Shown one piece after another: positions 5,434-44,841 of a stretch of 64,000 nucleotides of DNA. The position numbers and the translations under genes were made by a program. The notes under the pieces were generated by a model, which was given only the letters and a program-made list of their open reading frames with translations, was not told where the DNA came from and did no database searches. Source of the DNA: Eukaryota sp. GEM-RC1 (taxonomy: Eukaryota); contig JAUFOQ010000001.1 of NCBI GenBank assembly GCA_040285855.1, positions 1,736,001 through 1,800,000 of the forward strand, read 5' to 3'. The number at the start of each line of letters is the position of its first letter. The stretch's first letter is position 1.

Positions 5434-6921
5434 GTGTCATTTTCCCTTTCCCCAGCAGAAACTCTTTCAATTATTCTCAATGAACCGTCCCTTAGTAACC
5501 AAACCATTTCATTTGGTGGGGAATCTATCGAAGACAACAAATCAGTTCTTGCAACACACTCTACGTACTTCAGATCTCTCTGGTTTCTGGAGTTTAGTGA
5601 TAAGCTGGAGAACTCTATTGATTTCTCTCATCTACCCGTGGATTCCGACAACTTCTTCGTGTTTTTCAAGTCTTTCTTTGGAAAGTCATTCACCATCAAT
5701 GAGAACAATGCTCATGACTTTTACTACCTCGTCCACTACTTCAAAGTGGACGAACTGATTGACCAAGTGGAAAATCACCTAAACACTCATCTCGTAACCT
5801 GGGCTTGGTTAAAGTCTTTCATTAATGAAGCAGATGAAAGAAGTGACTTGAGAGCTCTGGAATTCGTTGGTCCCTGCTTTTCCAAGATTGATGACCTATT
5901 GATTGATGACGTGATGGCAATCACTACTGAAGGGTATAAAACGCTTTCAAAATACTGTATCTCTACTCAATCACAGTCGTGGTTCATCAAATCTCTGGTG
6001 GAATCGTTTTTGAATCAAAGTTTCGATTTGAATGAATTTTTAACTGTGTTTAATTATTGCGCAATACAAACCTTTTCTTTTCAACATTGGAATGAGTTTT
6101 TGTTTGTTCCTTTAAAAGATGTTGAAACCGACTTGATGAAGTTTTTGTTTACAAAAGTTAAGAATCTCTATTTTGACTCTTTGTTGCAGCAAAATTCTGT
6201 GCTGAATGAGGAACCTTTTAAATTAAGTTCTTGTTTGGATGTACAGAATTCTAAATCGACAGCTACAATATATCATTTAGAAAGCAACAATTGTGACTTA
6301 AACGCAATCAGCACTGATTTAACACGAGAAATGCATGATTCAGAAAACTCTCGTTTAAAGTCGACAATTATTCAATTAAAACGAGACGTAGAACAATTAA
6401 AGCCGAATTCTACCCAAAAACGGTCAGTTTATCAATCAAAAACGATTAAATTCTCTCAAACTCGAAAGAATTCTCAGTTACAAGTTAGTAATGATAAAAC
6501 AAGAGTTGTTAATATCGGTGCTTGTTTAGGGGGTGCTAAAGGAAATATCTTGGGAGAAGATCCACTTCTTCCAGGGAATGTTTCTACTTGGAAGTTGAGG
6601 TACCACGGGAACACAAGTTATCTTCTTGTTGGAGTCATTGACGAGTCAAAGTTTTGTGTTGATGGAAAATGTTTCAATAACGCTCACTGTTTTCTTAATA
6701 ATAATGCTGTTTGTGGTTGTCTCTCAGGAAACAGTGACCAATGGAATCCTGGGAAATTACTGGAAATCAATGCAAATTTAATTAATTACATTTTAACAAT
6801 CAAATCCTTGAGTAATTCTTCAATTAACCTTACTGGAACTCTTCCCAGATTAAGTAGTGGTAATTATTATCCGTTTGCTTTCTAAGGTCGTAGAGATCAT
6901 CTTCTTGAACTCGTTGAATAA
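5434..6921 (+). pseudogene. BTB/POZ + coiled-coil + SPRY-like protein, probably disabled
   Basis: Paralog of 38833-40317; start is GTG rather than ATG; in-frame TAA at 6883-6885 where paralogs have Leu; reading resumes GRRDHLLELVE* to 6921. Confidence 0.75.
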
Positions 6922-7539
6922 ATTTGATAACATTTCATTTTGAATAATTCGCCTCCGTTAGAGAAGTAGACAACAACTTCTGACATTGGTTTAATTAGTT
7001 TCAAATGGACTAGTTTTCCAAACAAAATATTAAGTGTACATAATTCGTTCATAAGAAAATGTTGTAATGGTAGTCAATTGAAGCTGTATTTTTCGAAATA
7101 TCCATTATCCTTATACTTCAGTCAGTAATGATGTTTGGTATCTCAACAACATAAATCTGATGTACTATAACAACAACATAGCGTATTCAGCGTTGTTGAA
7201 ATCATCACTTGTGCTTTTATTGTTGTGTTGAACTTTTTCTTTCATAAGATCAAATATCCATTGATCAGTTATGTTCAATCTCATACCACATCAAGTCATT
7301 TCTACAGGATCATTTGTAATACCACCACAGTCAATCGATTGATGCATAAACAATATTATAAACATCATTTGTACAATAATTAGTCAACTCCATCCAGTAA
7401 AACGGGGTTTATGAGCAATCGGTGAAATAGATGATTTCGCAGAACATAATAACTAACAGACACTAACCAAAGCATCTAAACTATGATTCTTCTGTCCATC
7501 ACCCAACAACTTACCTAAAATTGAATTAAAAAATCTGTG

Positions 7540-7860
7540 CATTGAACGAAACAACACAAACGTTAACCTGCTCAACCAAAAATGTTAATCAATGGACCAC
7601 TACAATAAGACTTCGTTGTTGTTTATGGCCATATAATTTGCCAAAGGATCTTCAATGTAGCTGTGGAAAACAATTAACGTTTTCTCATCTGTTAAGTTGT
7701 AATCGCTACATAACTTATCGAACGTGTATGCATGATGCTGTAAGAGATCAAATACATGCTATGTGTAAGTCTTACAACATTGAGTCATTCGTTGAACCAC
7801 TTCTAAGATCTTAAGAACCAAGTTATAATTATAATGTCGAAAAACAGAACCAATTTTTTA
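7540..7860 (+). mobile_element. CRE-like non-LTR (RLE) retrotransposon fragment
   Basis: IRLRCCLWP..CSCG..HLLSC..HDAVRDQI..VEPLL zinc-finger/pre-endonuclease motif. Confidence 0.75.
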
Positions 7861-8087
7861 GTTGATTTTCAAAGCTTCTGACAGTGACATGGCACATTGA
7901 GCACCAATGGAGTTCATTCACGAAACGTTAGATTTATCAAAAGACACTGCTGAAATCCTCTATTACAGACATGGTAAAGACTGTTGTTGTATTGTATGTA
8001 AAGTTGTATCAGAACCTCAATGACAACTAATTATCGTGTACTTTTCTAATACAACCTCAATATTTTTGTATTCAATTCAAATCTTCT

Positions 8088-11479: not shown

Positions 11480-12330
11480 ATAAAATCTAAAGACGTGAAC
11501 AAAATTAACAATACTATTCCCTGACATTATCTTGAACCCCAAAGAGCTTCTTCAAAATTCCGTCAAAATGCTCAAACATTGAACGCAATATAAAAAAACA
11601 AGACGACCCTACAAAAACTAATGCTGAACTTCATGCCAAATTTGCAACACAATTGATTAAAAGATGACAAAAACGTTTGAGCTGCAGAACCGAAATTCCC
11701 ACAAATGGAAATACCGAATAGTTGAAACACCAAAGCATTATGTCTTTGTGAATTCAATTTAGAAATATAATCACAATAACGAAGACATTTCTTATCTTCA
11801 GCAATACTCAAATGTGAATATTGATCATCCAATATTTTACTACTAGTAGTATCATTACATGGATCCACAGTGGTGAAATCCAAAACAACGTGTTCTCAAT
11901 TTAACCATGGACCAATTAAATCACCACGACTCTTATCACGAATGAAAGAATCAGAAAATGAGGACAATAGAGGTTCATTTTTGCCATGTATCCGTTTGAT
12001 TTAAATAAAGAAAGACATTGATCGCGAATACTGTTGTGAAGAATAGATCTCGTATGAATAAATAAAGGGCAATTAACAATGTGATAAAACGAAGCAGGCT
12101 TTAAAGAACTATAGATGCACTTAGTTTGTTGAACTAAGCCATTAGGCCAGAACACCAATCTCAAACGCATGTTAATTACCCATTCGTGATCCTTCAATTT
12201 AAAATTAAAGCGTTGAGGATAGCGTATCACTGTAGAAGACGCAACAGAACTTGAAATGTCCTTTTACAAAGGGAAAAATTTGTTATTAATTGACTGAATT
12301 AGTGTAGGTCTATCAACTAAAAAATACATG
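11480..12330 (-). mobile_element. CRE-like non-LTR retrotransposon 3' fragment
   Basis: NMRLRL..C..HIVNC..HNSIRDQC, then DFTTVDP RLE-like region. Confidence 0.8.
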
Positions 12331-16318: not shown

Positions 16319-16989
16319 TTATTCAAGGATTTCAAGTTCATGATTATTATAAATTAATGAAGCAAATGGATAATAATTACCACTACTAAAATTGGGAAGG
16401 GTTCTAGTAAGATTAATTGAAGAATTACTCTCACAGATTTGATTGTTAAACTGAAATTAACTAGATTTGCATTAATTTCGACATATTCACAGGATAAATC
16501 ATCAACCTTTGCAACTTGAACATCATCATTCTCCATTTGTAACAAGATATTTCCAGGAGATATGTTTCCATGAACATAACCAGCATTATGGAAAGCAGCC
16601 AAACCTACTACAACATCCTGAATGATTGACGCTGCGACTTCCTCAGAAAACGACTCCTTCGCGTTGAGTCTCTGTTGCAGAGAACACGTTAAACGCTCCT
16701 GTACTATCCCAGGAGGGTCGAGGACAACCCCAAGAGTGGAGACAACATTAGAGTTGGAAGTTAGTGCCTTGTAAGTTTCGTAGACCCGCTTAACGTTACA
16801 TTGAACCACTTGAAGATTGTCCTCAGAGATGTATGGTTGCTTTAAGACAATGTCTTGTGACTTGTATTGGTCATAGTGTATAACTTTATGAGGTGTACGG
16901 GAGGCAAGTTTAAGTTTGCGTAGATGAGAAGGGTTGATAATGACTGGTGAAACGGTATCCTTCAGTTCACGAATCTGATAGCGTGACAT
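16319..16989 (-). pseudogene. Degenerate kinase fragment fused to the distal part of a SPRY module
   Basis: VHGNISPGNILL (catalytic Asp absent) joined to EINANLVNFSLTIKSV..GNYYPFASLIYNNHELEILE* across a frameshift. Confidence 0.7.
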
Positions 16990-17669: not shown

Positions 17670-18117
17670 TTATTCAACGATTTCCAGTTCATGATCACTC
17701 CAATATAATGAAGCAAATGGATAATAATTACCACTAGTTAATCTGGGAAGAGTTCCAGTAAGATTAATTGAAGAATTACTCACAGATTTGATTGTTAAAA
17801 TGTTGTTGATTAGATTTACAATGATTTGGAGTAATTCACCAGGATTCCACTGAGTTTTGTTTCCTGAGAGACAACCATAAATGGAAGAACCATTGGCAAA
17901 ACAGAGAGGATTCCCAACACCACCACCAAGATTAAACTTTGACTCGTCAATGACTCCAACATAAAGACCAGAGGGATTTGAAGTACTTGGAGTGTGCAGC
18001 GAGGATAGATTTGTTTACTTCGATGGATTCCTCACCAAATGAAATGGTTTGGTTACACAAGGAAGGTTCATCAAGAATGATGGAAAGAGTTTTCTTTGAG
18101 GGGAGAGAAAAGGACAT
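17670..18117 (-). pseudogene. Internally deleted BTB-SPRY paralog
   Basis: MSFSLPSKKTLSIILDEPSLCNQ..AHSKYFKSLW joined near 17967, out of frame, to LYVGVIDESKF..YPFASLYWSDHELEIVE*. Confidence 0.85.
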
Positions 18118-20843: not shown

Positions 20844-22373
20844 TTAAAGACTTTCAAGAATCTTCACCAAGAAATCCATAGTCTTATTAACTGAATTAAT
20901 CGAACACTCCTCCTTAGAAGTATGTGGATAAGCAATATAAGGCCCAATAGAGATAGCACTCATAGCCTTATCAGGACGTTTAGCCATAAGAATAGAAGCT
21001 TCAAGTCCAGCATGAACAGAGTACACCTTTGCATACTCATTGAACAGAATTTGATGACACTCTTGAGCAATCTGTAAGACACGGGAGTCCAGGTCTGGGT
21101 TCCATCCTACAAATCTACAGGCAGGTCCCAACAACTCAGCACCAGTAAGCTTAGCCAAAGACTTCATCTCCAAATGGAACAAATCCATTTCACTTTCAGC
21201 AGATGATCTTGAGAACAACTCAACAACAAACTTATCTTCCTTAATGTTAGCCAATGCACAATTGACTGAGGTCTGGACTGCTCCTACAATACCAGGATTC
21301 ATACGGATAACTCCATGGGGACAGACCATCAAAGTGTCAATGATCAACTCTGACAATTCCTTGCTCATTACCTTTTCAGGAATCTCAGCAGCCTCACATA
21401 AGAGAAGAGGAGGCTTGGTCTCAATGATCTTGTATTCTTCATAGAATTCTGCAAAAGATTCAGCAAGAGCAGTCTTCCAATCCTCAACATTCTCCACCAT
21501 CACAACAACTTCGGCTGAGCTTGGGATAACATTACGAGCTCTACCAGCAGTGAAAGAGGCAATGTTGAACTCACCTTCTACTTTGTTCATGGCGTGAGAG
21601 ATGATACGAGCCATGACCTTAATAGCGTTTCCTCGATTTTCACCAATTTGGATACCACTGTGACCACTTCGAAGGTCCTTGACAATGATCTTCATTGGGC
21701 TAATTTCAGGAACGTCTTCACTGAAGGTAATGGGAAGGTGGAGCTCGTGTTCTTGACCTCCGGATGATCCAACACAGATAGCGTGATCTTCTTCACTGTC
21801 TAAAGTCAATAAGGTGATTCGGGCATACCGAGATTAATGATAACAGTGGCTTCAAAAGGAACCTCGCACTCATCAGCTCCAACCATGGTAGTTTCCTCAT
21901 CGATCTGTGATAAGGTAATGAGAGAAAGAGCAAACGGTAAAGAGAGCTTCAATGGGACCATGTACGAGAGTATCTGCCTCCAGAACAGCCAGGGCCATAG
22001 CGACACCCATGCCGTTGTCAGCACCAAGAGAAGTGTTTTGAGCTAAGAGAAGATCGCCTTCGATGTTGAGACTGATGGGATCGGACTCGAAATTGATGGC
22101 TACATTCTCATCACAAACACAGACCATATCAAGATGACCTTGGAGAAGAACAACAGGAGAGTCCTCTTTTCCTTGAGTGGCAGGCTTTTGAATAAGAACA
22201 TTACCAACACGATCTCTGTGAGTTTTGAGCCCCCAGGTTTTAGCCATTTCTTCGATGCGGTCTCCAAGATGTGTACAGTTACCGGAACCGTGAGGAATGG
22301 AGCAGATCCAAAGGAAGTGTTCGAATGCACGTTTCTGAATGGGAGTGTAGGCGAAGTCTGTTAAGTTGGACAT
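20844..22373 (-). CDS. pepD: Aminoacyl-histidine dipeptidase (PepD-like, M20), 3 exons
   Basis: QGHLDMV, LGADNG, DEE, NLDSEE, HAGLE, SIGP..HT motifs; introns 21905-21935 and 21800-21828 restore the frame. Confidence 0.93.
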
Positions 22374-22833
22374 GAACTAGAAGCAAAAATTGTTGTACCT
22401 AATTTCGAACAATAACAGAACTGCAGTTTTACATTACTAGTAATAAAGAATCTCACCAACTACAAATGTATATGAATCAAAAAGGTCATGTATACTGCTA
22501 GCGTGGAAAACTATAAATCATTCGGATACATTCTAGGCAAATAGTATTATGGAACTAATATCACCTCCATTCCCTTTGTCTTACATATGCAAAAGAAAAC
22601 CTTTGTCGTTGATCTAAAAAACTATAACGTTGACGTAATAAAATTATGCCAACTTCATTGTCACAGTTATGCCTATAATAGAACTAACTGTGCAACAGAG
22701 TATAAGAATGATCCACACAAGTAATGTGCGAATTGACCCAAACAATCAAATATTGCGTTTCAACAAGAAACGAAAAGCAGTAGCTTAATATCACAATTAA
22801 TCTGCAGATACAGATGGACATGTCAAATAGGAG

Positions 22834-23100
22834 CTAATCGTGAACTGCAGAAAATACGGAATTACAGAAGAGTTCTCGATAAGCAGGACTGGCAGTCAAG
22901 AGAAAACTGTGGATATCTTCAGTGACTACTTCACAGTGGTCACAGCGAACCCCAGAATGGTCGAGACAAAGAGTATGTATATCATTTTCAAAAGTACATA
23001 TAGTTAACACCAATGAGCAATCATCATGGGAAACAACGTTTAGAGACTTAACAAACTTAGCGTACTGTTGGAGATCCTGAAGTTCCTGCTGGATGAACAT
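22834..23100 (-). CDS. GSKIP-domain (DUF727) protein
   Basis: C-terminal EDIHSFLLTASPAYRELFCNSV resembles the GSKIP LL..LSPAYR..FG..L motif; ATG at 23100. Confidence 0.7.
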   Translation of the reverse strand: MFIQQELQDLQQYAKFVKSLNVVSHDDCSLVLTICTFENDIHTLCLDHSGVRCDHCEVVTEDIHSFLLTASPAYRELFCNSVFSAVHD

Positions 23101-23125
23101 CGGAGAAGAAAATCTTTCCTTCCAT

Positions 23126-23707
23126 ATGCGACGAAGCTTTGACAACAATTATCCTCCTTCTGAAGTTCTTGGTATATACCTTACATCCACTCTCTTATTA
23201 CAGAGTTTGCTACCGTCTCACACGAAGTTGAACAGCATCTCTTCTGCAATCTTCTTTCAACAGATCAAATTCCTCATTTCAATGCCGATATCTTCCTTGA
23301 GAACAAGTCATCCATAGGTAAAGTTGCCGAGGTGCTAGGTTCGACGACAGACGCTTACTTTACTGTGAAAATGGCAGAGGGTATACCTGCAGCTTCCTTT
23401 AAAAAGGGTACGAAGGTCTACATTGATGCTGCCAAACTTCTCCCCCCTTACACGTTTCACAAATCCTCAAGCTCCTGGTGGTAGAGGCGGACGCGGTGGT
23501 AGAGGAGGTCGTGGCGGACGAGGAGGCCGTGGTGGTAGAGGCATGTCTCGTGGTCGTGGTGGAGATCGTGGACGTGGCTTTGGTGGACGAGGAGGCGGTA
23601 GAGGAGGTCGCGGTGGACGAGGTGGAGATCGTGGACGTGGTTTTGGTGGACGAGGTGGTGGTAGAGGTCGCGGCGGTGGAGATCGTGGTGGTTTCCGTCG
23701 ATTCTAG
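23126..23707 (+). CDS. GAR1: H/ACA snoRNP subunit GAR1
   Basis: PP.EV..IPHFNADIFLENKSSIGKVAEVLG..KLLPLTRF core plus RGG tail; intron 23172-23203; one extra C in the run near 23445. Confidence 0.93.
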
Positions 23708-25571: not shown

Positions 25572-25593
25572 TAAAATTGTTTATTTTCGACAA

Positions 25594-26861: not shown

Positions 26862-27806
26862 ATGAACATCGATCTTCCACTCATCATCTCTGAAGAAGTC
26901 CAATCTGCTCTTGAATCTGGACTTCCCATTGTTGCTCTTGAATCTACTATCATAACACATGGCAGTATGTCTTTAGCTGCGCTCATATAAGTGCCATATC
27001 CTCAAAATCTTGAAACTGCCCGTGACGTGGAAGCTATTGTTAGAGAACATGGATCTATACCAGCCACAATTGCCATCATTAACGGTATCATCCATGCAGG
27101 TCTTGTTGATGTTCAACTTGAGTCTCTTGCTAAAGGAGGAGATAATGTTGTTAAGGCCTCAAGACGTGATTTAGGTTACGTCCTGATGAAGAAACTATCT
27201 GCCGGAACCACCGTCAGTGCCACAATGTTGATCTGTAAACTTGCCAACATTCCCATCTTCGCAACTGGTGGTCTAGGTGGGGTATCTCGTGGCTATGACC
27301 AGATTCTAGATATATCCACTGATCTGACTGAATTCGCAAAGAGTAACATTATGGTTGTAAGTGCTGGTTGTAAGAGTATCATGGATATCCCTAATACATT
27401 GGAATACCTAGAAACCGAAGGAATCCCTGTAGTTGGATATCAAACGCTTGACTGCCCTTCGTTCTATTCCCAACGCTCTGGTATCAAGCTCCCATGTTCA
27501 GTTGATTCTGCTCTGGAGGCTGCAGTGCTGTACAAATACACTCAGGCTATCTCTCCTTCTGGAGTTTTGGTGGCTAATCCTATTCCAAAGGAGTTTGAGA
27601 TTCCTAATGAAGAGATTGAGCCAGTTATAAGTGAAGCTTTGGATGATGCTAGTAGTAATGATGTTAGTGGGAAGGATGTTACACCGTATTTATTGAAAGC
27701 TATTGTGGAGAAAACTGGAGGTAAAAGTTTAGTTACGAATATTCATTTAATTAAGAATAATGCAAAGTTGGCCTCTCAAATTGCTGTAGAACTTAGTAAG
27801 TTGTAG
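26862..27806 (+). CDS. psuG: Pseudouridine-5'-phosphate glycosidase (stand-alone)
   Basis: VALESTIITHGMPYPQN (after 27-nt intron 26965-26991), TTVSATM, FATGGLGGV, GKDVTPYLL. Confidence 0.95.
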
Positions 27807-28109
27807 ATTGCCCACCGATGTCCACCATCTTCTGAATATTGATTGACTTGTTTTCTCAAGGTTTTTTATGAGATTTTCTTAGTTCAAAATTCGTATTCTG
27901 AGCTAAATTATTGATAACAACAATACAAGATTACTGATTATTGGTAGTATTTCCGGTTGATTTTCGCTTTCTGTTCGTCAATGTGATAGTTTACCGTTTC
28001 AATTTTTGTTTCTGTGAATGGGGTGATATACGTTGTTCGTCAACCAATGGTACTGTACAAAACACATCAAACAAGTCTAGATTTTAAAATTCTGTCCGCT
28101 ACTACAACC

Positions 28110-28673
28110 ATGTTCTCAACAACCAAAACTAGACCACGCTATGGCACACGCGAAGGGCGCGTCACTCCCAAGGAAGATACTACACACACACTGTTGCTCG
28201 ATTTGCCAGATTTGCTTCACAAGATGAGGATGAATCACATTGACGAAATACACTTAACGTCAACCAGAATTTCTTCCTATGAGATCACTTCTATCGCTGA
28301 AGGACTGAACCGCAATTCTTCAGTTCAGTATCTCTTCCTTAGTCACACAGGTATAGGTGATTCAGGGGCTGCTGCGATTGCTAGGGCTTTAGGAAGGAAC
28401 CAAACTGTGTCTAGTGTTTACCTTATTGGAAACAATATCGGAGATGAAGGAGCCATCGCATTGGCTGAAACTTTGAAAACGAACACATCGCTTCGGCTTC
28501 TCAATCTATCTAGGAATTCCATCAGCTACAATGGTGCTGTTGCTCTAGCTGAAGCCTTAAAGGTGAATTCCGTTGTCAAACTGATATATGATGGTAACTC
28601 TTTTGGCTTTGATGGGTCCACGTTACTCAGTGAAGCGAGAAATAGACCCTATCTCACATATCCACGGTTTTGA
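28110..28673 (+). CDS. NLRC3/RI-like LRR protein
   Basis: 28-aa repeats LxxNxIGDxGAxAIAxAL. Confidence 0.85.
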   Translation: MFSTTKTRPRYGTREGRVTPKEDTTHTLLLDLPDLLHKMRMNHIDEIHLTSTRISSYEITSIAEGLNRNSSVQYLFLSHTGIGDSGAAAIARALGRNQTVSSVYLIGNNIGDEGAIALAETLKTNTSLRLLNLSRNSISYNGAVALAEALKVNSVVKLIYDGNSFGFDGSTLLSEARNRPYLTYPRF

Positions 28674-29036
28674 ATTACTGGTGGAAACTCCATGTATCAT
28701 AGTTGTTATTGTTGGTCGTAAGACTAAAACACCAATAAAAATTGATATTTATGGCAAGTTGTTTGTTTGAAGTTTAACTAACAACACACGTGCCAAAAAG
28801 ATGACAGCAGGGCTATTCTGCAGAACAATGTTGGATCAACGAGAATGTCTGCAGTAGAGTACTATGTGTGCTTGTACACAAATTTTTCACAGTCCCTTAT
28901 AAGTGTTTGATGCAGTAAACAGAAGCAATATTAAGTGTGTAAGCATACACGTTATCCTTCTAAGGACTACAAATTATGTCAAGAAAATTGGAAAAGTGAA
29001 GAGTAGAATTTAATTTTTCCCACTCTTCCACACAAT

Positions 29037-29540
29037 ATGCCACCATCACCTGAATTGAGCAGCATTCTACACCACCTAAAGGCCAATGATATACATGAGA
29101 TCTACTTAACTGGCAAGTCCATTACGACTGAAGATGCTTTTGAGATTGCAAAGCTACTTAAAATTAATTCGTCAGTACACTACGTGTTTCTAGGCCATAA
29201 CACTATCGGAACGGAAGGAGCAATTGCTATTGCGGCAGCATTAAAGGTGAATTCCTCTGTCACCAATATCTATCTTGAAGGAAACGCCATAGGAGATGGG
29301 GGAGCCATAGCAATCGCTGAAGCCATCAAAGAGAGTAAAACGCTGACTTGGTTAAACCTGGGAGACAACTCCATTGAGAACCGTGGTGCCCTTGCCATAG
29401 CCGAATCTTTGCGAGTCAACTCTTCTGTCACTAAAATCTATCTTGGTGGAAACAAGTTTGACCAAGGTGCAATTGACGCACTGATAAGCGCAGCTAACAA
29501 AGAGGTCGAACTATTACCTAATTTCCGGGCAAGCTCCTAA
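29037..29540 (+). CDS. NLRC3/RI-like LRR protein (tandem paralog)
   Basis: Same 28-aa repeat and shared EIYLT cap. Confidence 0.85.
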   Translation: MPPSPELSSILHHLKANDIHEIYLTGKSITTEDAFEIAKLLKINSSVHYVFLGHNTIGTEGAIAIAAALKVNSSVTNIYLEGNAIGDGGAIAIAEAIKESKTLTWLNLGDNSIENRGALAIAESLRVNSSVTKIYLGGNKFDQGAIDALISAANKEVELLPNFRASS

Positions 29541-30198
29541 TCTTTGGATAATTTTCAAAGATCAATATTTCAAAAAAATACATGTATATCAGAACTCGAA
29601 TTTATAAACAACACAACATCATAAGTGTCACAGATTCATTGTTCAAAACGCTATCATCTTCTATCTACTGAGAAAGTATAGAGTTTGAATGTCAACCAAT
29701 ATCATACTCTGACTGACAGTCTGTTCCCTCACAATCGTTGAAATGATGGACTTCAATGTTTCACAATCTGTGTTTGTAACCGATAGAAAAACCACCGGAG
29801 AGCATCGTCAAACACAAACAGTCCATGTAGTATTGAAAGACAATGAAGCTGTAAATAGTCCACAAATAGGATTCAAACAGTGTGCCGCAGGGAAACTACT
29901 TTGCACTGATTCTTCAGGAATATTGCATCTACCACATCTACCACAGAGAAGAAGACTAAGAGAACAAACACAGGATTTGTGTCGATAAGAAAGCAAAATT
30001 AATGAAATTAAATTAATGATTTTCTTCTTCAATTTTTGATCATGGTCATCTCAAGCTAAATATCGTAAGCGTTCTATTTATGACAATACAGCAAAACTGA
30101 CCGATCAAGATTGTGTTGGTGCTTTAACTGCTCCAGTAGTTCGTTAGTTATCAGTTCAAAATTGAAATACAAATTTGCAACTTCTCAACCAAGTGTCT

Positions 30199-30915
30199 AT
30201 GAGTTCTTCCGAACACAAGTGCGGCATTTGCAAGAACACTTTCATGACACCTGTTACTATTGGCTGTGATCACAGTTTCTGTTACTCTTGTCTGTTACAA
30301 TATTTGGATGACAACAACTCCTGTCCAATCTGTCATTCTCTTGTTAACTTATCAACACTTAAACCCAACTTAGAGTTACAGGAAGAAGTAGAAAACTCTA
30401 AACCCAGACCTATATACATTCCTGACAAAGTGAAGGGTATCGTTCGTGTCCTTGAACTCAATTGCTCGACTGAAGTGTATCTTACGAGTAGATCCATTGG
30501 ATCTGAAGCAGCCATCGCGATTGCAGACCGCTTGAAATCCAACACGTCCGTTCGCTACCTATTTCTAGGAGACAACTCCATTGGCCCTGAAGGAGCAATC
30601 GCTATATCCAATGCACTAAGGTACAATTCCTCCATAACTAGTATTTACCTCGGGGCAAACTCTATCGGTGACGTTGGAGTAATTGCAATAGCAGAGGCAC
30701 TAAAGGTCAACTCATCAGTTCAACGTATCAATCTTGGTGATAATGCTATCATCAGTGACCGTGGAGCTCTTGCTCTTGCCAGTGCCTTGAAAGTCAATTC
30801 ATCTGTGATTACAATTTACCTTGGAGGTAATTGTTTAAGCTCAGATGCGATCGGTGTCTTGAAAGAAGCCGTACGAAAAAATGGTAAGCACCGTGATGTT
30901 CAATTGATTCTTTAA
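30199..30915 (+). CDS. RING finger + RI-like LRR protein
   Basis: CGIC..CDHSFCYSC..CPIC C3HC4 RING followed by LRRs. Confidence 0.9.
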   Translation: MSSSEHKCGICKNTFMTPVTIGCDHSFCYSCLLQYLDDNNSCPICHSLVNLSTLKPNLELQEEVENSKPRPIYIPDKVKGIVRVLELNCSTEVYLTSRSIGSEAAIAIADRLKSNTSVRYLFLGDNSIGPEGAIAISNALRYNSSITSIYLGANSIGDVGVIAIAEALKVNSSVQRINLGDNAIISDRGALALASALKVNSSVITIYLGGNCLSSDAIGVLKEAVRKNGKHRDVQLIL

Positions 30916-31488: not shown

Positions 31489-33466
31489 TTACTCAGTAGG
31501 CTCAACTGAAGCGAAACTAGAAAAAACGACAGAAATAAATATACAAAGTACAGCAAAATACCAGAAGCGAGTATACTTCGACTTTTTAGGTATGATTTCA
31601 AGCACATGATTACGATACCATAACCCAGCAAATGGATAATAATAACCAATACTTAATCTGGGAAGCGTTCCAGTGAGATTAACTGAAGAATTGCCCACGG
31701 ACTTAATTGTTAACGTATAATTAATCAGATTTGCAGTGATTTCGAGTAACTTCCCCGGATTCCAGTGACCTTGATTTCCTGAGAGACAACCCCGAATAGC
31801 ACCATTGTTGTGAAAACAATGAGCATTCATCCAACAACAACTTCCAACAACATCAAAATTAGACTGGTCAATGACTCCAACAACAAGGCTACTAATATTC
31901 CCCTGGTACTTCAACTTCCAAGCATATACATTACCTGGAAGAAGTGGATATTCACCCAAGATACTTTTGACACCATCAACACCACTACCAACAACTCTCT
32001 TACCATCCCGACTAACTCTTAAAGCAGAATGTTTCCTAGCTTGAGAGAATCTAATCATTTTAGATTGACATCCTCTAGTGGTCTTTTTTGTTCGTTCAAT
32101 TTCCCGTTGTAAATGACTTATGTTGGCAACAATTCTGGAAGTTTCTGCCTCTAAACGAGAATTTTGATACAAGTGAATCGTCTTTAATTGTTGGATCTCT
32201 ACTTGTAAATTCTCAACATTTTTCGAGTATTTTTCTTTTAAATTCTGAATTTTTGAATCAAAAATAGAAACTTTTTTAGATAAGTATGAATTTTTGCCTT
32301 TGAGACCAGAGTTTTCTTCTTTTAAAGAACGATTTTCAGTTAGACTTTCCTCTACAGAATTCTTTAAAGACACGTTTTCCTCATCAAGTCTACTGATTTC
32401 TAGATTTAATTTCAAATTTTCATCAACAAGAACATCAGTATTAGCATTTAAAGAAGATTCATTTTCTTTTATCAATGAAGATCGGCCAGCATCACTACCA
32501 GCAGCTTCCAAAACCACGGAATTTTTCAAAACTTCAATTATTTCATTAATTTTTGGTCTTGATAAAGGATCTGGGTTCATACATTTCTTAATTAATTCCT
32601 TTAAACACGTGGGTGTTGATTTGTCGAAAGGTAATGGTTTGTCCCTCATTTTGGCGTCATAAATCTGCGTACATGTACATCCTTCAAAGGCTTCTTTCCC
32701 AGTAAGAAGTTCATATAAAACTACTCCAAGTGAATATATATCACTAGCAGGACTAGAACCGAAATCAAACTGCTCAGGAGCAGCATACTTTGGGGTCATT
32801 GCATTAGATCTGGTAATAAGCGTTGTAGCAGAAAGGTTTTTAGAGGTACCGAAATCAGAAACTCTAACGTGATCATCGACCAGTAGAATGTTTGCTGGTT
32901 TTAGATCTCCATGAATTACGGACTTTAGGTGGAGAAATTTAACTGCTTGGGACAACTCCTTGGCGTATCTCAAAGTTGATGGCGTGAGGGAGTTTGGGGA
33001 GGTGAGGGAAGAAGAAGCTCGTTCCATAACAATGCCAATGGAATCTTGGAAGGAGGACATTCCAAAGACACGAAGTATGGACGGATGGTTGAGGTTAGTT
33101 AGGAGATTCAGTTCTTGTTGGAGTTTGATTCTTCCTTTCTCTGTGAGAGACACCATTTTGACAACAACGGGGAGATCGAACCATTTGGCAGAGTATACAA
33201 CTGCAAACCCTCCTTCCGCAATTTTTTCTCCAAGATCGATCTGATCAGGAAGGAATTTGGGGGCAAAGATCACCATTACGAGAAGCCTGAACAAGATCTT
33301 GCAGGGCAAAGTTCACCTTTCTCTCCTTCAGGCAAATACTGGTACAAAGAGGACATTTATTTAGCTGCGCTGAACATCCGGAGCAAACGGTGTGACCTTC
33401 GCCACAGATAAGTAGGGGAATGCGATCAGAGAGATTGAAAGACTCACAGCAACAGAAGCATTCCAT
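31489..33466 (-). CDS. RING + protein kinase + coiled coil + SPRY-like + C-terminal hydrophobic segment
   Basis: MECFCC..GHTVCSGC..CPLC; HGDLKPANILL, DFG, YAAPE; one extra C near 33249 separates ORFs 33245-33613 and 31489-33309. Confidence 0.88.
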
Positions 33467-34874: not shown

Positions 34875-36803
34875 TCAAGTTGGTACTATTGGTAAACAAG
34901 TTTTCACACAGTTACATGAATGCTTATAATAAAGCATTAAAAAGAAACAGAAAAACACTGATATCAAAAGGAAATACGAATATGCAGTGTACTTGCTAGG
35001 TATGATTTCAAGTACGTGATTACTATTAGACAACCAGACATATGGATAGTAATAACTACTACTTAATCTGGGAAGAGTTCCAGTAAGATTAATTGATGAC
35101 CGACTCACAGATTTGATTGTTAAAGAGTAATTAATCAGATTTACAGTGATTTCGAGTAATTCACCGGGACTCCACTGGACCATGTTTCCTGAGAGACAAC
35201 CACCAAAACTACCATTATTGTGGAAACAGTGAGCACTGTTCCAACAACTTCCATCAACACTAAACTTAGATTCGTCAATGATTCCAACAATAAGACCTTC
35301 AGTAGACCCCTGGTACCTCAACTTCCAGGTATACTTTTTACCTGGAAGAAGTGGATTTTCTCCCAAGATACTTCTGGCACTAATGTTTCTTCTTCTACCG
35401 GTAACAACTCTCGTTCCATCCTGAGTAACTTGTAAATCAGAATGTTTTCTTGTTTTAGAGAATTTGATCAATTTTGATTGAGGAACTGAATGGCCACATC
35501 TAGTGGTCCTTTTGAACAATTTCATTAACCGTTCGAAATGAATTTTGTAGTCAATAACTCTAGAATTTGCAGGTTTTAGACGATTAAATCCATTAACCAC
35601 CGTATTTAATTTGTCAATCTCTTCCTGTAAATCCCTAACAATGTCTGAGTGTTGTACTTTTAAAGTCTGAAGTTCTGCACGATAACTGGAAACTGTTCTA
35701 GATAAATGAGAGTTTTGTTCATCAAGTCTACTGATTTCCTGGATTAACTTCAGATTTTCACAATCAAGAACCTCATTTCTAGCCTTCAAAGAAGATGCAT
35801 TTTCTTTGTTCATAAGAGACCGGGCATAATCATCATCAACAGCTTCCAAAACCACGGAATTTTTCAAAACTTCAATTATTTCATTAATTTTTGGTCTTAA
35901 TAAAGGATCTGGGTTCATACATTTCTTAATCAATTCCTTTAAACACGTGGGTGTTGATTTGTCGAAAGGCAATGGTTTGTCCCTCATTTTGGCGTCATAA
36001 ATCTGCGTGCATGTACATCCTTCAAAGGCTTCTTTCCCAGTAAGAAGTTCATACAAAACTACTCCAAGTGAATATATATCACTAGCAGGACTAGGATCTG
36101 AATAATATTGCTCAAGAGCAGCATACTTTGGGGTCATTGCATTAGATCTGGTAATAAGAGTAGTAGCTGAAAGGTTTTTAGAGGTACCAAAATCGGCAAC
36201 TCTAACGTGATCATCGACCAGTAGTATGTTTGCTGGTTTTAGATCTCCATGAACTACAGACTTTAGGTGGATGAATTTCACAGCTTGACATAGCTCCTTG
36301 GCGTATCTCAAAGTTGATGACGTGAGAGAGTTAGGGGAAGGGATGGAAGAAGAAGCTCTTTCCATTACAATACCAATGGAATCGTGGAAGAAGGAGATGC
36401 CAAAGACACGGAGTATGGACGGATGGTTGAGGTTGATCAGGAGATTCAGTTCTTGTTTAAGTTTGATTCTGCCCTTCTCAGTTAGAGACACTATTTTGAC
36501 AGCAACGGGGAGATCGAACCATTTGGCGGCACATACAAGAGCAAAGCCTCCTTCAGCAATTTTTTGTCCGAGAACGATCTCAGTGGAAGGAATTTGGGGA
36601 CATAGATCACCACTACTAGAAGCCTGTAAAAGATCTTGCAAGGCGAAGTTCTCCTCCGTCTTTTTCAGACAGTTGATATCACAGAGAGGACATTTATACA
36701 GTTGTGATGAGCATCGAGAACAGACAGTGTGACCTTCGGTACAGATCAGTAGAGGACGGCGATCAGAGAGATCGAAAGATTTGTAGCAAGAGAAGCATTC
36801 CAT
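34875..36803 (-). CDS. RING + protein kinase + coiled coil + SPRY-like + C-terminal hydrophobic segment
   Basis: Intact ORF from MECFSC; tandem paralog of 31489-33466; tail YFLLISVFFCFFLMLYY. Confidence 0.92.
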   Translation of the reverse strand: MECFSCYKSFDLSDRRPLLICTEGHTVCSRCSSQLYKCPLCDINCLKKTEENFALQDLLQASSSGDLCPQIPSTEIVLGQKIAEGGFALVCAAKWFDLPVAVKIVSLTEKGRIKLKQELNLLINLNHPSILRVFGISFFHDSIGIVMERASSSIPSPNSLTSSTLRYAKELCQAVKFIHLKSVVHGDLKPANILLVDDHVRVADFGTSKNLSATTLITRSNAMTPKYAALEQYYSDPSPASDIYSLGVVLYELLTGKEAFEGCTCTQIYDAKMRDKPLPFDKSTPTCLKELIKKCMNPDPLLRPKINEIIEVLKNSVVLEAVDDDYARSLMNKENASSLKARNEVLDCENLKLIQEISRLDEQNSHLSRTVSSYRAELQTLKVQHSDIVRDLQEEIDKLNTVVNGFNRLKPANSRVIDYKIHFERLMKLFKRTTRCGHSVPQSKLIKFSKTRKHSDLQVTQDGTRVVTGRRRNISARSILGENPLLPGKKYTWKLRYQGSTEGLIVGIIDESKFSVDGSCWNSAHCFHNNGSFGGCLSGNMVQWSPGELLEITVNLINYSLTIKSVSRSSINLTGTLPRLSSSYYYPYVWLSNSNHVLEIIPSKYTAYSYFLLISVFFCFFLMLYYKHSCNCVKTCLPIVPT

Positions 36804-36959
36804 TGAAATATACACCTTTGTATTTTAATTAGGGTGGAGATGAACGTGATTTTCTTCAATCAAAAATAAGAAATGATCTAATTCTCATCTACAAGTTCAT
36901 GAGGATAAAGCATGATCAGTTCGGTAATGAACTAAGATATATCTTCCATGTGATCAGTA

Positions 36960-37140
36960 CACATGAAAGTTGAGGTACCATGGTTGCAGTGTTTTTGTTT
37001 TTGTTGGAGTTATTGACGAGTGAAAATGCATTGTGAAGGTAGTTGTCATCTGAATGCTCTTCCTAGTCTAAGTAGTGACAATTATAATGTATTCGCGGTG
37101 TTGTTACACCGTGACGATGTCCTTAAAGTTATTGAATAGT
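36960..37140 (+). pseudogene. Decayed solo SPRY-module relic
   Basis: AAGTTGAGGTACC, GTTGGAGTTATTGACGAG and CTTCCTAGTCTAAGTAGTG blocks match the family tail. Confidence 0.6.
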
Positions 37141-38832: not shown

Positions 38833-40317
38833 ATGTCAGTGTCGCTTCCCCCAACAGAAACGCTTTCCATCATCCTAGATGAACCTTCCTTATGTAATCA
38901 AACCATTACATTTGGTGAAGACTCAATGGAAGTGAACAGATTCATCCTTGCTGCCCACTCTACATACTTTCAATCTCTTTGGTTCATGAAGGTTGGTGGT
39001 AGCGAGGAAGAACTAATTGACTTCTCCCATCTCCCTGTCAGACCGGATAACTTCTTTCGCTTCATCAAGTCCTTCTTCGGAATATCATTTACTCTTAATG
39101 AGAGCAATTCGTGTGAATTCTACTATCTTGTCCACTACTTCCAAGTGGACAAACTGATTGTACAGGTGGAAAACCAGATCAAACCTCATTTCGTGACCTG
39201 GGCTTGGTTAAAACCATTCATTAAAGAAGCAGATCAAGGAAATGACTTGCAAGCTCTGGAATTTGCCGGTCCTTTCTTTTCCAAGGTTTCTGACCTTGTG
39301 GTTGATGACGTGATGGCTATCACTACTGAGGGATTACTAACCCTCTCCAAGTATTGCACGTCTACTCAATCACAGTCATGGTTTATTAAATCAATGGTGG
39401 TATCATTATTTGATCAAAATTTTGATTTAACTGAGTTTTTAAATATTTTAAATTCTTGTTCAATTGAAGCTCTTTCTTTTCAACAATGGGATGAGTTTCT
39501 ATTTGTTCCTTTAAAAGATGTTGCAGAATTGGAAGCCGATTTGATGGAGTTTTTGTTTACAAGAGTTAAGAATCTTTATTTTGATTCTACAGGGAAGAAA
39601 AAATCCCACTCAAAACCACAAAATTCTGGAGTCAGATCCAAATTTTCTCCAAAGTCAGACTCTGACTCGAATGTTCTTACTGCTGACCTGGCCATCGAAA
39701 GTCAAAGTTTTTCTACAGAATTTTCCACTTTTAAAGCAGATATTTCTCAATTTGATACACAATTTTCTGATATTCAAGGAGAAATTGAAACATCAGAACC
39801 TCAACCTACAACAACTGCAATCATTCCACAATCAAATGTGATTAGATTCTCACAAATCGCAAAACATTGCCAAATGGAAGTGAGTGATGACCAAAAAACT
39901 GTTTTTGTTGTCGGAAGTGATGATATCGAAGTAAGAAACATCTTGGGAGATTATCCACTTCTTCCTGGTCATGATTACACTTGGAAGTTGAGGTACCAGG
40001 GGAATACTGACATGCTTTTTGTTGGAGTTATTGACGAGTCAGAGTTTAGTGCTGATGGGTATTGTTCTATGAATGCTCACTGTTTCGTGAATCATGGATC
40101 TTCTGCTTATGGTTGTCTCTCAGGAAGTAGAGCTAAGTGGAATCTTGGTGAATTACTCGAAATCAATGCAAATCTAATTGATTTTACTTTAACCATCAAA
40201 TCTGTAAGTGATTCTTCAATTAATCTTACTGGAACTCTTCCCATATTAAGTATTGGTAATTATTATCCATTTGCCTTTTTATATTGTGGTAATCATGTAC
40301 TAGAAATTGTTGAATAA
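38833..40317 (+). CDS. BTB/POZ + SPRY-like protein (intact)
   Basis: VNRFILAAHSTYFQSLW BTB motif; C-terminal ILGDYPLLPG..TWKLRYQG..VGVIDES..YYPFAFL. Confidence 0.92.
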   Translation: MSVSLPPTETLSIILDEPSLCNQTITFGEDSMEVNRFILAAHSTYFQSLWFMKVGGSEEELIDFSHLPVRPDNFFRFIKSFFGISFTLNESNSCEFYYLVHYFQVDKLIVQVENQIKPHFVTWAWLKPFIKEADQGNDLQALEFAGPFFSKVSDLVVDDVMAITTEGLLTLSKYCTSTQSQSWFIKSMVVSLFDQNFDLTEFLNILNSCSIEALSFQQWDEFLFVPLKDVAELEADLMEFLFTRVKNLYFDSTGKKKSHSKPQNSGVRSKFSPKSDSDSNVLTADLAIESQSFSTEFSTFKADISQFDTQFSDIQGEIETSEPQPTTTAIIPQSNVIRFSQIAKHCQMEVSDDQKTVFVVGSDDIEVRNILGDYPLLPGHDYTWKLRYQGNTDMLFVGVIDESEFSADGYCSMNAHCFVNHGSSAYGCLSGSRAKWNLGELLEINANLIDFTLTIKSVSDSSINLTGTLPILSIGNYYPFAFLYCGNHVLEIVE

Positions 40318-41439: not shown

Positions 41440-42340
41440 CTTCAATAAAGAACAGTTTATTGATGGAGTGTACAAAAATACATATCATAATAGAAGCTAT
41501 GAAACACTAGACAGTGTCTAGTAGACACCGAAAATTCCTGGTCAAGAGTACCACAGTTTATATACAACTTTGTGAAAATTGATTTAAAAAACTTAGGCAC
41601 CAAACGGAACAAAGAAAAAATCAAACGTTTATGCCAAATTGATAAGTTAAATCTCTTATTCCGAGACTTACACATAGATCCAAAATCAGTTAAAAACTGA
41701 GAAGCCATTTCACCAATACTACCAAAAATATAAATAGCAAATGTAACAAATACATATTTTGAATATATTAATTTTGATTGAGTTTAGCAACATCTTTGGA
41801 ATACAAATCAATTTTACGTTTTTCAGCTGTTTCTAGGTGATTAAAACCTTTTGAATTCAAACCTTTAACATAAGTTTGAGCACATGGATCAACTGTTGTA
41901 ACATCAAGGATAATTAGACTAGAAGCAACAACATGACCATGTAAGTCACCCCGACGAGAATTATTATTTAACTCAAGACCCAACTTACTAAATAAAGGTT
42001 CAACTTTGGCATGAAATCCATGAGCCTTAAACATTTCAAATGTAACATCTCTTACAGCATTATGAACTGAACGAAATTGAATTAATTTGGGGTAATTAAT
42101 TACATGTCTAAAAATTGCAATGTGACGATGACTACATACACATTCAGAATTGTCCAGCAATTCTGCAGGAAACAAACCTAAACGCAATCGCATATTTAAT
42201 TTCCAAGCCTCATCAGACACATGCAAACCAAAAGGACGTGGTTGTTGAGTGATCAAACAAGTTGAATTCTTAATATCATTTTAGAAAGCAGCAAAAACGA
42301 CATTATTAATTTTAGTAACTCTAAAACGATTTTCAAAATC
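41440..42340 (-). mobile_element. CRE-like non-LTR retrotransposon 3' fragment
   Basis: NMRLRLGL..CVC..HVIN..HNAVRD..EP..RRGDL..LDVTTVDP..AEKRK RLE signature. Confidence 0.85.
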
Positions 42341-42659
42341 CAGGTTTTCGGGTGCCTTCAAAAGCTTATTTTAAAGTTAACTTCAATACTGTGACTCAGT
42401 TTCTCATGGTACACTAGTGACTCAAACCCACTTATTGATTGTAGGAGCTTCAGTATTGGGAGCATTCCGAGGCTACATAATTAGTGGACTTCAATTAGTC
42501 TGGTTCAGACTAAGTCCTATTTTGATCTGGTTCAAAAGGTATCGACTCCATCTCAAAGGTGTTATTAACAACACTAGCCTGGAATCGTTACTGTTGACAT
42601 TTCAAGTCTGAAAAATTGACATCATCCAGAAGACCATCTTTTTCAAAAACACAGTTCTT

Positions 42660-44841
42660 ATGCACAATCTCCCCACTCCAACGATTCTGTGTCAAAAACT
42701 CGACCAGTTCCGTGAATTTTCCTCTTTAACAGATGTCATCATCACCTATGTCGATCAAGAATTCCCTGTCCATAGAGCGATCGTCTCCCTCCACAGCTCC
42801 TTCCTTGATTCCTTACCCAGTCGTAGTAGATGCAGTGCTGTTTACGAAATCCCCAAAATCCCCACCGTCGGCGACTCTTTGGTCGATTCAGTTCTTCGGA
42901 CTTTCTATGGCAAACCTTTGACAATCAATACTTCAAACATCAGTCCCCTTATCATCCTTGCTTCTCATCTCAATTACCCCGCCTTATCCACGGCCTGTCA
43001 GTCTTGCCTCGTCAGTGGTTTGGCGACTGACTTTGTCTTCAAGCTGGACTCTTCCGATATTGTCCATAAGTTGAAGGAGAGTAGAACTTCTGACGTCATC
43101 ATTAAGTTCAAAAGTACTAAGATTCCGGCTCACTCAATGTTGCTCTGTTGTTGGTCTAAGTTCTTTGAGAATAGAATTATTGGACCATTGGCTGAGGACA
43201 ATGACGATGATTACGATTTTACTGAGAAGTTTGGTTTTTCTGATGAACTCTTTGAAAAGTTTTTTGCCGTATTCTATTGTCAGAACATCGACTTAAATAT
43301 CCGTAACTTTTTTGAATTTTTCCATCTCGCTGTCTACTTCCAAGTCGAATTCCTACAGAACATTTGCTTCGGTTTCCTATCTAATTACTCGTTGTCCATT
43401 GATGACGTCATCAATCTAATCAAAAAATCTGGTGACTTGAATGACTTTTACTTTGTCAATGAGTTCAAATACATCCTTAGTAAAGTTACCATTACCACTG
43501 ATTCAACTCCAATTAGATTACCACTCAGTTTTATCGTCAATCTGTTGGAACTTGAGGTTTTCAATAATCTTTATCTTTTGAAATGTGTAGTGGTTTCCTA
43601 TGACTTAGAATCCTCTGCACATGAAGAACTTATTTCAATTTTAAGGTACTTTTCCAATGGTGTCCCACTTGATCAAATATTTGAAATATTGGTTGATTTA
43701 TTTGATAATTCAGAGTGTACACATACCCTCTACGATTGGACTTTAGAGATCTTGAACTCTGATAAATCCACTAAATTACCTTGTAAATGGTTCTTTTTCT
43801 TGATAAAAACTGCAGATTTACTTGAAGATACCACAACAATGACAATTCTTTCCAGTTTATTTCCCAAGTTCTTACAGTCTACTCCAATTGAAAGTTTACC
43901 AGAACTTGTTTGTTCTCCAAAAACCTTCTGTCAATTATCCTCCAATGTTCTTTCTTCACATGTTTTGTGGTTTACTTCAAATTTAGTTAGTGCTTACAAC
44001 AATTCAAATTGGAACGTTGATGAATTTGAAAATTGTTTTTATTCTTTAGATTTTAGTTCTACTCCAATTAATCTACTTGTACAAGTTTTAGCTCCTTTAA
44101 AATCAGAAAAAGAATTAAGACGTTTTCTTTTGGAGTTCAACTCAGTTGTAATTGTTCCAAAATTAATTCAAATTTCAGAAGAACAACAAATAGAAATTTT
44201 GAATTTAAAAAGAACTATAAGTGATTCTTCTCGTTCACCTGCATTTAAAGTTAAAAAACTGGATGAATCATTTGAATCAGATATGTCAACAGCACTTACT
44301 CAACCAAGGCGAGAGTTACCACATGTAAAATGGAGTCAGGAAAGTCAATTACTTTCTCCGTCGAGAGCGATTCAATTCTCTCAAACTAGGGAAACATAAT
44401 GAGCTAAAAATTAGAAGGCATGGGAAGAGAGTTGAAGTTGTAAGAAGTGGTAATAAGTATAGAAATATCTTAGGGGAATATCCACTTCTTCCTGGTAATG
44501 TGTATACTTGGAAGTTGAGGTACCAGGGGACTACTAATAGTCTTGCTGTTGGTGTCATTCATGAGTCAAAGTTTAGTGTTGATGGTAGTTCTTTTGAGAA
44601 TGCTCACTGTTTTTTCAGTCATAACCCCGTGTGTGGTGGTCTCTTAGGAAACACTGATCAGTGGAATCCTGGTGAAGCACTCGAAATCAATGCAAATCTA
44701 AATGATCAGATCTTATCAATCAAATCCGTGAGTAATTCCTCAATTAATCTTACTGGAACTCTTCCCAGATTCAGTAGTGGTAATTATTATCTGTATGCCT
44801 TCTTATATTGGGCTGATCACGTGCTTGAAATTGGTGAATAA
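42660..44841 (+). CDS. Tandem BTB-BTB + SPRY-like protein
   Basis: Two BTB starts (FPVHRAIVSLHS; IPAHSMLLCCWSKFF); one extra G near 44390 separates the SPRY ORF 44500-44841. Confidence 0.85.

Follow-up and report, generated by a model that had tools for sequence, protein, structure and literature searches.

A lineage-specific family of predicted Cullin-3 receptors with a hypervariable B30.2/PRYSPRY surface in the metamonad Eukaryota sp. GEM-RC1

What is the use, to a free-living protist, of more than one hundred versions of one C-terminal protein module? The question is raised by a stretch of 64,000 nucleotides from Eukaryota sp. GEM-RC1 (GenBank assembly GCA_040285855.1, contig JAUFOQ010000001.1, positions 1,736,001–1,800,000 of the forward strand; hereafter the window), in which genes with different N-termini end in the same module. 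The organism is Skoliomonas sp. GEM-RC, a free-living bacterivorous metamonad of soda lakes (PMC11316075; this and the other papers cited are drawn on for the accessible parts of their text). The genes belong to a real, lineage-specific, hypervariable receptor family. Our reading, to which a probability of about 0.52 is given, is that this family of more than 100 members carries a predicted hypervariable B30.2/PRYSPRY surface and that its members are likely Cullin-3 substrate receptors, each recognising a different, probably foreign, protein.

An earlier note on this DNA had placed the module at eight loci, all of which were recovered when the last 160 residues of the open reading frame (ORF) at 38833 were compared with the whole window by tblastn. 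E values ranged from 1e-111 to 1e-35 at six loci and were 8e-13 at 16319 and 9e-5 at 36960; no ninth copy was found in the window, the next tblastn match having an E value of 2.6. Five near-complete copies share 57–62% identity with the query. Reading of the DNA reveals intact ORFs at two of the eight loci (38833 and 34875), while of the six broken ones two are each interrupted by one added base within a short run (31489–33466 and 42660–44841) and four are pseudogenes or debris. In window coordinates, the features are:

5434–6921, plus strand: BTB-BACK-coil-SPRY pseudogene; module at 6439–6918; GTG where paralogues have ATG
16319–16989, minus strand: debris chimera of the N-terminal part of a kinase and the last ~55 residues of the module; frameshift near 16430
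17670–18117, minus strand: BTB-SPRY pseudogene with an internal deletion; BTB stub of ~50 residues out of frame with module residues ~57–160
31489–33466, minus strand: RING-kinase-coil-SPRY with a hydrophobic C-terminal tail; module at 31591–32061; reading frame broken near 33248 by an additional base that falls between RING and kinase
34875–36803, minus strand: intact RING(C3HC4)-kinase-coil-SPRY, 642 residues, with a hydrophobic tail; module at 35001–35474
36880–37139 (start approximate), plus strand: degenerate module relic (the 36960 locus) with stops and an internal deletion
38833–40317, plus strand: intact BTB-BACK-coil-SPRY, 494 residues (P0001); BTB-BACK at 38833–39582, module at 39835–40314
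39835–40314, plus strand: module of P0001 with the predicted B30.2/PRYSPRY fold; the fold model and the hypervariable residues are given in module numbering
42660–44841, plus strand: BTB-BTB-helical-SPRY; an additional G near 44389, a little way into the module

Pfam recognises a BTB domain at 5434, 17670 and 38833, two at 42660, and a kinase with a RING-like domain at 31489 and 34875. The BTB, BTB-BTB and RING-kinase forms listed in the earlier note are therefore borne out, but its "dead kinase" (16319) and "stand-alone" (36960) forms are decay products rather than demonstrated protein architectures. The kinase fragment at 16319 stops before the C-lobe and matches none of the G-loop, HxD, DFG and APE motifs, and in the 5434 copy a premature TAA at 6883–6885 costs the module its last strand. 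The extra bases at the 31489 and 42660 loci could mark pseudogenes or, since the source assembly is of the long-read type (PMC11316075), assembly errors.

The next question is what the module is. When only the narrow family was used, sequence searches of Pfam and PDB did not detect SPRY (0 of 28 members against Pfam, and none in the window); the distant relatives P0146 and P0148 do match Pfam PF00622. The AlphaFold2 model of the module, made from 99 sequences, is all-beta with a mean predicted local distance difference test score (pLDDT) of 95.1, and its 14 short strands and edge element agree with the 13-strand twisted beta-sandwich, spanning PRY and SPRY parts, that characterises B30.2/PRYSPRY domains. 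Foldseek places the PRYSPRY domain of TRIM67 first (E value 1e-8), followed by RanBP9, TRIM25, TRIM9 and TRIM7 (to 3e-8). An independent aligner (VIA) matches the model to TRIM67 with a Z score of 17.9 and a root-mean-square deviation of 2.5 Å over 150 of 160 residues; its ranks 1–33 are SPRY, B30.2 or NHR-type chains, and lectins do not exceed Z 10.5. Furthermore, a profile broadened by the distant relatives matches the SPRY domains of HERC1, RanBP9/10, RNF135 and TRIM9/67 by sequence (E values 8e-7 to 9e-4 for HERC1, RanBP9 and TRIM9/67), and the top clusters in the ESM Atlas are SPRY (score 0.97). Identity to solved B30.2 domains is 11–21%. On the strength of its model, the module is a divergent B30.2/PRYSPRY domain, in agreement with the SPRY-like nature that the earlier note had ascribed to it.

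This predicted domain is unusual in where it varies. Across the 99 modules, about 20 hypervariable positions (31–33, 57, 59, 60, 62, 76, 78–80, 85, 87–90, 92, 148, 150 and 151) are set in a conserved frame. Entropy reaches at least 2.5 bits at 15 of the 19 scored variable module sites as against none of 250 BTB-BACK positions, and 50 of 51 full-length paralogues carry a unique string of variable-site residues. Among 14 core paralogues (91 pairs; 78 for the linker) the median difference is 7.6% in BTB-BACK, 7.3% in the strict module frame, 19.6% in the coiled coil and 79% at the variable sites; at sites chosen from the other 37 (non-core) sequences alone, the same 14 differ by 73%. In TRIM structures, ligands bind on the six-stranded sheet, at a site whose contours are set by strand beta6, by the beta2/3 and beta5/6 loops, and at the C-terminal ends of beta7 and beta12 (PMC12355088). 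The variable sites appear to line the corresponding face of the model, because strand order and aligned ranges, rather than a superposition, match the elements of the TRIM pocket. The alignment is nearly colinear (model residues 2–160 to TRIM67 609–767), and by range TRIM67 Met680 in the beta5/6 loop falls at about residue 73, Tyr691 in beta6 at about 84 and TRIM10 Trp471 at the end of beta12 at about 150. Residue-level binding data were not found in the accessible text of PMC9180843.

Could such a pattern arise without selection? A BTB-BACK-SPRY gene might have been passively amplified in a repeat-rich chromosome, its partnerless binding face evolving freely by neutral drift while the fold was kept. 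This explanation is considered unlikely, since in the 14 paralogues the difference at the variable sites is about four times that in the weakly constrained coil and exceeds the neutral expectation, which is itself a rough estimate (20–41%; the variable-site difference is, again roughly, 2.5–6 times that of a neutral codon). W, Y, F and H together make up about 29% of the residues at the variable sites, which also speaks against drift, with an N-terminal comparison of only three sites that is uninformative; a paratope-like composition was discarded as a claim for want of a usable control. Drift has been argued for the F-box genes of plants (PMC3030570), and the GEM-RC1 genome, 48% of which is repetitive (PMC11316075), offers a suitable setting.

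Codon tests, made on the DNA of six window copies (three of them broken) with the fixed sites chosen from non-window proteins, gave a divided answer. The ratio of nonsynonymous change at variable sites to synonymous change in the frame (pN/pS) is 1.75 (95% interval 1.41–2.21), the comparison of site models M7 and M8 is significant (p = 0.0012), and a fixed-site codon model with a shared synonymous clock yields a nonsynonymous-to-synonymous rate ratio (omega) of 1.4–2.5, with p < 0.05 in five of six settings. Against positive selection weigh a pN/pS within variable codons of 1.24 (95% interval 0.85–1.89), the comparison of M1a with M2a (p = 0.19) and two results that also count in favour of drift, namely the comparison of M8a with M8 (p = 0.12) and the codon model in which the variable partition is given its own free rate (omega 0.6–1.1, p > 0.05 in six of six settings). 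The framework has an omega of 0.24–0.48 and is under purifying selection; the copies were therefore translated and folded, which again counts against drift. Taken with the protein-level excess over the linker, diversifying selection, on which the earlier note had made its proposal depend, is likely from these sequences and not formally established. Synonymous divergence itself seems 2–3 times higher in the variable codons of the window copies than in the frame, which may reflect saturation, multi-base changes or an older ancestry of the variable patches under homogenisation of the frame.

The comparison of module and N-terminal histories that the earlier note had proposed has likewise a double outcome. 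Mantel correlations (rho) between module frame and N-terminus are 0.62–0.70, about equal to that of BTB with BACK, and the frame thus broadly tracks the BTB domain (0.62), but the variable sites are largely decoupled (0.17–0.28). In two cases the sequences suggest exchange between copies: P0047 and P0065 share 94% identity in the RING-kinase part, a figure that drops to 60% for the module, and in coil and module the kinase protein P0002 resembles the BTB gene P0010 (85% identity) more closely than its kinase siblings (75% and 58%). Approximately unbiased (AU) monophyly tests, with P0095 and three other rows removed, rejected none of three groupings (p 0.31–0.49); an earlier AU rejection of monophyly for the kinase-type-A modules (p 0.001) was discarded, as the group had lacked P0095, a truncated member of that type. 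A few loops are shared unchanged by paralogues that are otherwise dissimilar, among them a 9-residue beta5/6 loop in P0014 and the 34875 gene. For any one patch only 2–7 of the 4753 pairs are identical, and roughly half of those are recent duplicates. This is too few for patch shuffling to be the main diversifier, and its part is minor. Exchange between copies, as judged from these patterns, occurs but is occasional.

To what is the variable face attached? The first 250 residues model as BTB followed by a helical BACK domain (pLDDT 89), and the top Foldseek matches of this model are Cullin-3-complex adaptors, namely vaccinia A55 (E value 3e-6) and KLHL11 (E value 3e-5), with TM scores of about 0.5–0.56; the Pfam BACK family matches the older relative P0141 only. 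The linker is a heptad coiled coil, none of 300 shuffles scoring as high in P0001, P0008 or P0002. The Cullin-3 contact motif of BTB adaptors is phi-x-E. Where this motif would lie, F-x-D/E is found in 48 of 51 full-length members. Two observations caution against a simple assignment. The intact 38833 gene is among the three members without F-x-D/E and carries V-G-G there, and BTB-only transcription-factor domains are also among the fold matches, so that a BTB domain alone is not proof of Cullin-3 binding. Based on the established BTB-BACK adaptors and the fold matches, the intact BTB-BACK-coil-SPRY protein is nevertheless most likely a Cullin-3 substrate receptor. By analogy with those adaptors, the BTB domain would dimerise and bind Cullin-3, the coiled coil would space the SPRY domains, and each paralogue would capture on its SPRY face a target of its own, leading to the ubiquitination of that target.

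The RING domain is confined to the kinase members and absent from the BTB members. The C3HC4 pattern is present in all seven RING-kinase proteins tested, and the 34875 protein matches Pfam Sina_RING at 27.5 bits, slightly below the cut-off; its kinase retains the G-loop, VAVK, HGDLKP and DFG motifs. These members would link the same recognition module to a RING E3 (ubiquitin ligase) and a kinase of their own. Both window copies end in a hydrophobic tail and kinase members retain catalytic motifs, for which reason RING-kinase-SPRY proteins may signal or ubiquitinate from a membrane. Pfam detected no B-box in the window proteins, and the precomputed Pfam domain lists for the close family of 115 contain none. 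The window genes are therefore not TRIMs, but work by a predicted TRIM-like logic.

The same N-termini could also act without Cullin-3, BTB-BACK and coil serving only to oligomerise the SPRY domains, in the manner of TRIM5, into lattices or sensors of high avidity that would sequester their targets or signal through the RING-kinase-SPRY members. The heptad coil of the linker is compatible with this, as are the kinase members with their catalytic motifs, the motif form F-G-D rather than phi-x-E in 43 of the 51 proteins, and a relative, P0118, that combines an MLKL_N-like domain with a kinase and a B-box. We regard a ubiquitin-independent mode as decidedly improbable, since the best fold matches are Cullin-3-bound BTB-BACK proteins, the acidic motif residue is kept in 48 of 51 members and the remaining N-termini encountered (RING, RING-B-box, UBA) all suggest a link to ubiquitin.

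How large is the family, and where do its genes lie? Protein searches yielded 115 distinct proteins in the close family, one the window's own and 114 labelled Eukaryota sp. GEM-RC1; the census covers annotated proteins clustered at 90%, misses unannotated pseudogenes and has neither of the window's two RING-kinase proteins among its matches. One member, P0063, matches the 42660 locus with 99.6% identity over 560 residues. BTB-BACK precedes a full module in 52 of the 115 and a partial module in seven, while two have BTB only and eight BACK only; four are RING-kinase proteins, one has a kinase, one is BTB-BTB and one a BTB-BTB fragment. The remaining 39 show no recognised N-terminal domain, and many of these begin inside BACK or the coil, resembling truncated models. 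Several unrelated N-termini are thus joined to the module, as the earlier note had seen, but the family is mostly of one architecture, BTB-BACK-coil-SPRY (52 proteins as against five with a kinase and one BTB-BTB), rather than an even mixture. The same note's view of a lineage-specific, high-copy family agrees with the 115 proteins, their richness in pseudogenes and their shallow clade. BTB and SPRY receive no mention in the accessible main text of the genome paper (PMC11316075).

As many as 94 of the 115 copies lie on one 3.98-Mb contig, at about 24 per Mb compared with 0.7 per Mb elsewhere. This concentration, together with the mobile-element fragments that fill the window and the six broken loci of eight, also fits passive amplification. 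Similarity between copies begins at the start codon and ends no more than ~80 bp from the stop; since it is confined in this way to the gene and no poly(A) tail was seen, both retroposition and a shared duplication unit were rejected. All considered, a birth-and-death repertoire in an arms race remains the best reading of the family.

Against whom would such an arms race be fought? The driver would be conflict with viruses, intracellular bacteria or mobile elements, as judged from the evolutionary pattern alone, and that the targets are foreign is suggested by the resemblance of this pattern to fish finTRIMs and nematode F-box genes. The earlier note had also pointed to a nearby virus-like insert. 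An AT-rich block on the minus strand, from ~58.6 kb to the window end (58600–64000), has a G+C content of 25–28% and dense minus-strand ORFs, with leucine-rich repeat (LRR) proteins, an AAA ATPase and orphans, and looks foreign. It lies ~14 kb from the nearest module copy and gave no convincing viral match: scans of viral contigs returned one 19-residue match, phages none and the Atlas no usable hit. Its viral nature was not confirmed, and it lends no support to an immune function.

The enemy might instead be internal, the diversified ubiquitin-ligase adaptors being directed at the cell's own transposon or selfish-element proteins or at fast-evolving self proteins. The sequence signature would be the same as for foreign targets, the expansion has taken place in a genome of high repeat content, and the window contains an LTR (long terminal repeat) retrotransposon, a DDE transposase and non-LTR-like fragments. 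Its targets are putative, and it counts against this reading that the sister species, with a still higher repeat content (55%; PMC11316075), gave only four module proteins among 30 distant matches looked up, a count that clustering may have lowered. We consider internal conflict unlikely, and foreign targets remain our preferred reading.

Does the module have a history outside this expansion? A full profile search returned 56 matches, 39 of them new. The 30 distant matches looked up include 20 from GEM-RC1, four from the sister species Eukaryota sp. TZLM1-RC and one from the amoebozoan Gocevia. The N-termini that precede the module in these relatives comprise BTB-BACK, RING-kinase, B-box-UBA, B-box-B-box, an MLKL_N-like domain with kinase and B-box (P0118) and RING-B-box-B-box-coil (P0126 and P0139). 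The last two, both from TZLM1-RC, carry a zf-C3HC4 and two zf-B_box stretches above the Pfam cut-off and the module at E values of 6e-26 (P0126) and 4e-16 (P0139). Shuffled sequences reach their coiled-coil score in 1 of 300 cases for P0126 and 25 of 300 for P0139, and a strict C3HC4 expression misses both, one spacer being a residue longer. Their predicted layout, RING, two B-boxes, coiled coil and C-terminal SPRY module, is that of a TRIM protein. The tripartite motif has been called exclusive to metazoans (PMC2533329), and outside animals the MATH-bearing TRIM subfamily alone has been found (PMC3503706); the metamonad proteins fit neither statement. A literature search in which subscription journals lay mostly outside and supplements were excluded found no description of a non-animal RING-B-box-coil-SPRY protein.

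Among further relatives, P0128 and P0143 (GEM-RC1, probably truncated models) also have TRIM architecture with a SPRY module. P0118 (TZLM1-RC), whose MLKL_N-like domain scores 29 in Pfam against a cut-off of 27, further has a kinase, a B-box, the SPRY module and a hydrophobic C-terminus, and is a possible sensor-executioner fusion in a metamonad. In P0109 and P0134 (GEM-RC1) the module genes are fused to a reticulon-like N-terminus and to a Ras fragment, odd joins which may represent captures or gene-model artefacts.

The module tree is a quick tree in which 69 of 122 inner branches are unresolved and from which partial modules (<130 profile positions), P0142 and P0147 are excluded. Here, 98 rows form one shallow clade (support of 90 in the Shimodaira–Hasegawa-like approximate likelihood ratio test, SH-aLRT) without a TZLM1-RC member. 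Older members form cross-species pairs, P0125 with P0131 (98) and P0139 with P0143 (94). The clearest sign that the module may have moved between N-termini is a clade with support 100 that unites P0128 (B-boxes), P0130 (BTB-BACK) and P0135 (RING only). The emerging picture is that of a skoliomonad family of long standing, diverse in its E3-type N-termini, which has lately expanded in a single species; as the relatives were clustered at 50% identity, an expansion in the sister species could be hidden. A wider proposal, which we put forward tentatively and at somewhat less than even odds, is that skoliomonads independently built a TRIM-like cell-autonomous immunity by joining SPRY to RING-B-box-coil, RING-kinase, MLKL_N-like kinase and BTB-BACK, the last giving, in one species, more than 100 Cullin-3 receptors with antibody-like variable faces that would track pathogens.

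The surroundings of the module genes are rich in repeats. An LTR-retrotransposon pol region (1196–5198, plus strand; reverse transcriptase, RNase H and integrase) ends ~240 bp before the 5434 pseudogene, and a decayed copy lies at ~48500–49350; the C-terminus of the former resembles a chromodomain. Mutually related fragments at 7530–7814, 11572–12263 and 41457–42280, two of which adjoin SPRY genes, resemble the endonuclease end of non-LTR retroelements, and the 41771–42280 fragment has no Pfam match. An intact DDE_1 transposase ORF of 562 residues occupies 51831–53519 (plus strand), with related short repeats near 51674 and at 53578–53736. Three tandem LRR_6 genes at 27990–30915 (plus strand), the last an intact RING-LRR gene of 237 residues, and a further LRR_6 gene with 84-bp repeats at 46651–47823 (plus strand) may constitute a second family of recognition module plus E3 beside the SPRY genes. 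Ordinary genes stand amid repeats at 20844–27806, encoding an M20 peptidase, a glycine/arginine-rich ORF, a CBM-containing ORF, an E2F/DP-like ORF and an Indigoidine_A family enzyme.

What would the family mean? Expanded cullin-adaptor and B30.2 repertoires are already known in animals and plants. If the reading is true, variable recognition based on B30.2 and linked to ubiquitin either arose or was retained far from the animals. The cytoplasmic defence of free-living protists is largely unknown, and more than 100 diversified SPRY receptors in a culturable anaerobic flagellate are a direct handle on it: the targets bound by cloned modules would name the enemy. The family also offers a library, made by nature, of PRYSPRY binding faces that share one almost constant scaffold. 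A protist repertoire of the BTB-BACK-coil-PRYSPRY type was not encountered in the literature search, within its limits given above.

Among known proteins, the conserved protist BTB-BACK-SPRY protein P0141 and the amoebozoan P0146 have the same architecture; they group in the module tree (SH-aLRT 83), and P0146 matches Pfam SPRY and BACK weakly. Their type is likely the ancestral form. They differ from the expanded clade in being divergent, with no expansion evident among the proteins examined. The KLHL, KBTBD and poxvirus A55 BTB-BACK-Kelch adaptors of Cullin-3 share the predicted BTB-BACK fold, but here PRYSPRY takes the place of Kelch, a coiled coil is inserted, and the genes are hypervariable and multi-copy. 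Expansions of F-box and MATH-BTB cullin adaptors were reportedly treated by Thomas in 2006; the substrate domains of the nematode and plant adaptors are FTH, FBA2 and MATH. These nematode and plant families resemble the present one in birth-and-death evolution, with an N-terminus that binds cullin and is conserved and a C-terminus that binds the substrate and evolves fast, and have been proposed to target foreign proteins (PMC8665587). Here, in contrast, the substrate domain is PRYSPRY, the order is BTB-BACK-coil-SPRY and the organism is unicellular. In SPSB1–4 and GUSTAVUS (SPRY-SOCS box), SPRY is likewise the substrate part of a cullin-RING ligase adaptor and binds through the loops of one face (PMC2923778), but SPSBs are few and conserved, with a C-terminal SOCS box and a fixed peptide motif. 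Finally, fish finTRIMs and the vertebrate group-2 TRIMs of the TRIM5alpha type (PMC2657112, PMC2533329) differ in their RING-B-box N-terminus from the BTB-BACK or RING-kinase found here without a B-box, in a unicellular metamonad, with a module invisible to Pfam and positive selection only partly shown. What they have in common with the GEM-RC1 family is the lineage-specific expansion of an E3-type N-terminus with coil and B30.2, variation on the B30.2 loops and a module shared by unrelated protein families.

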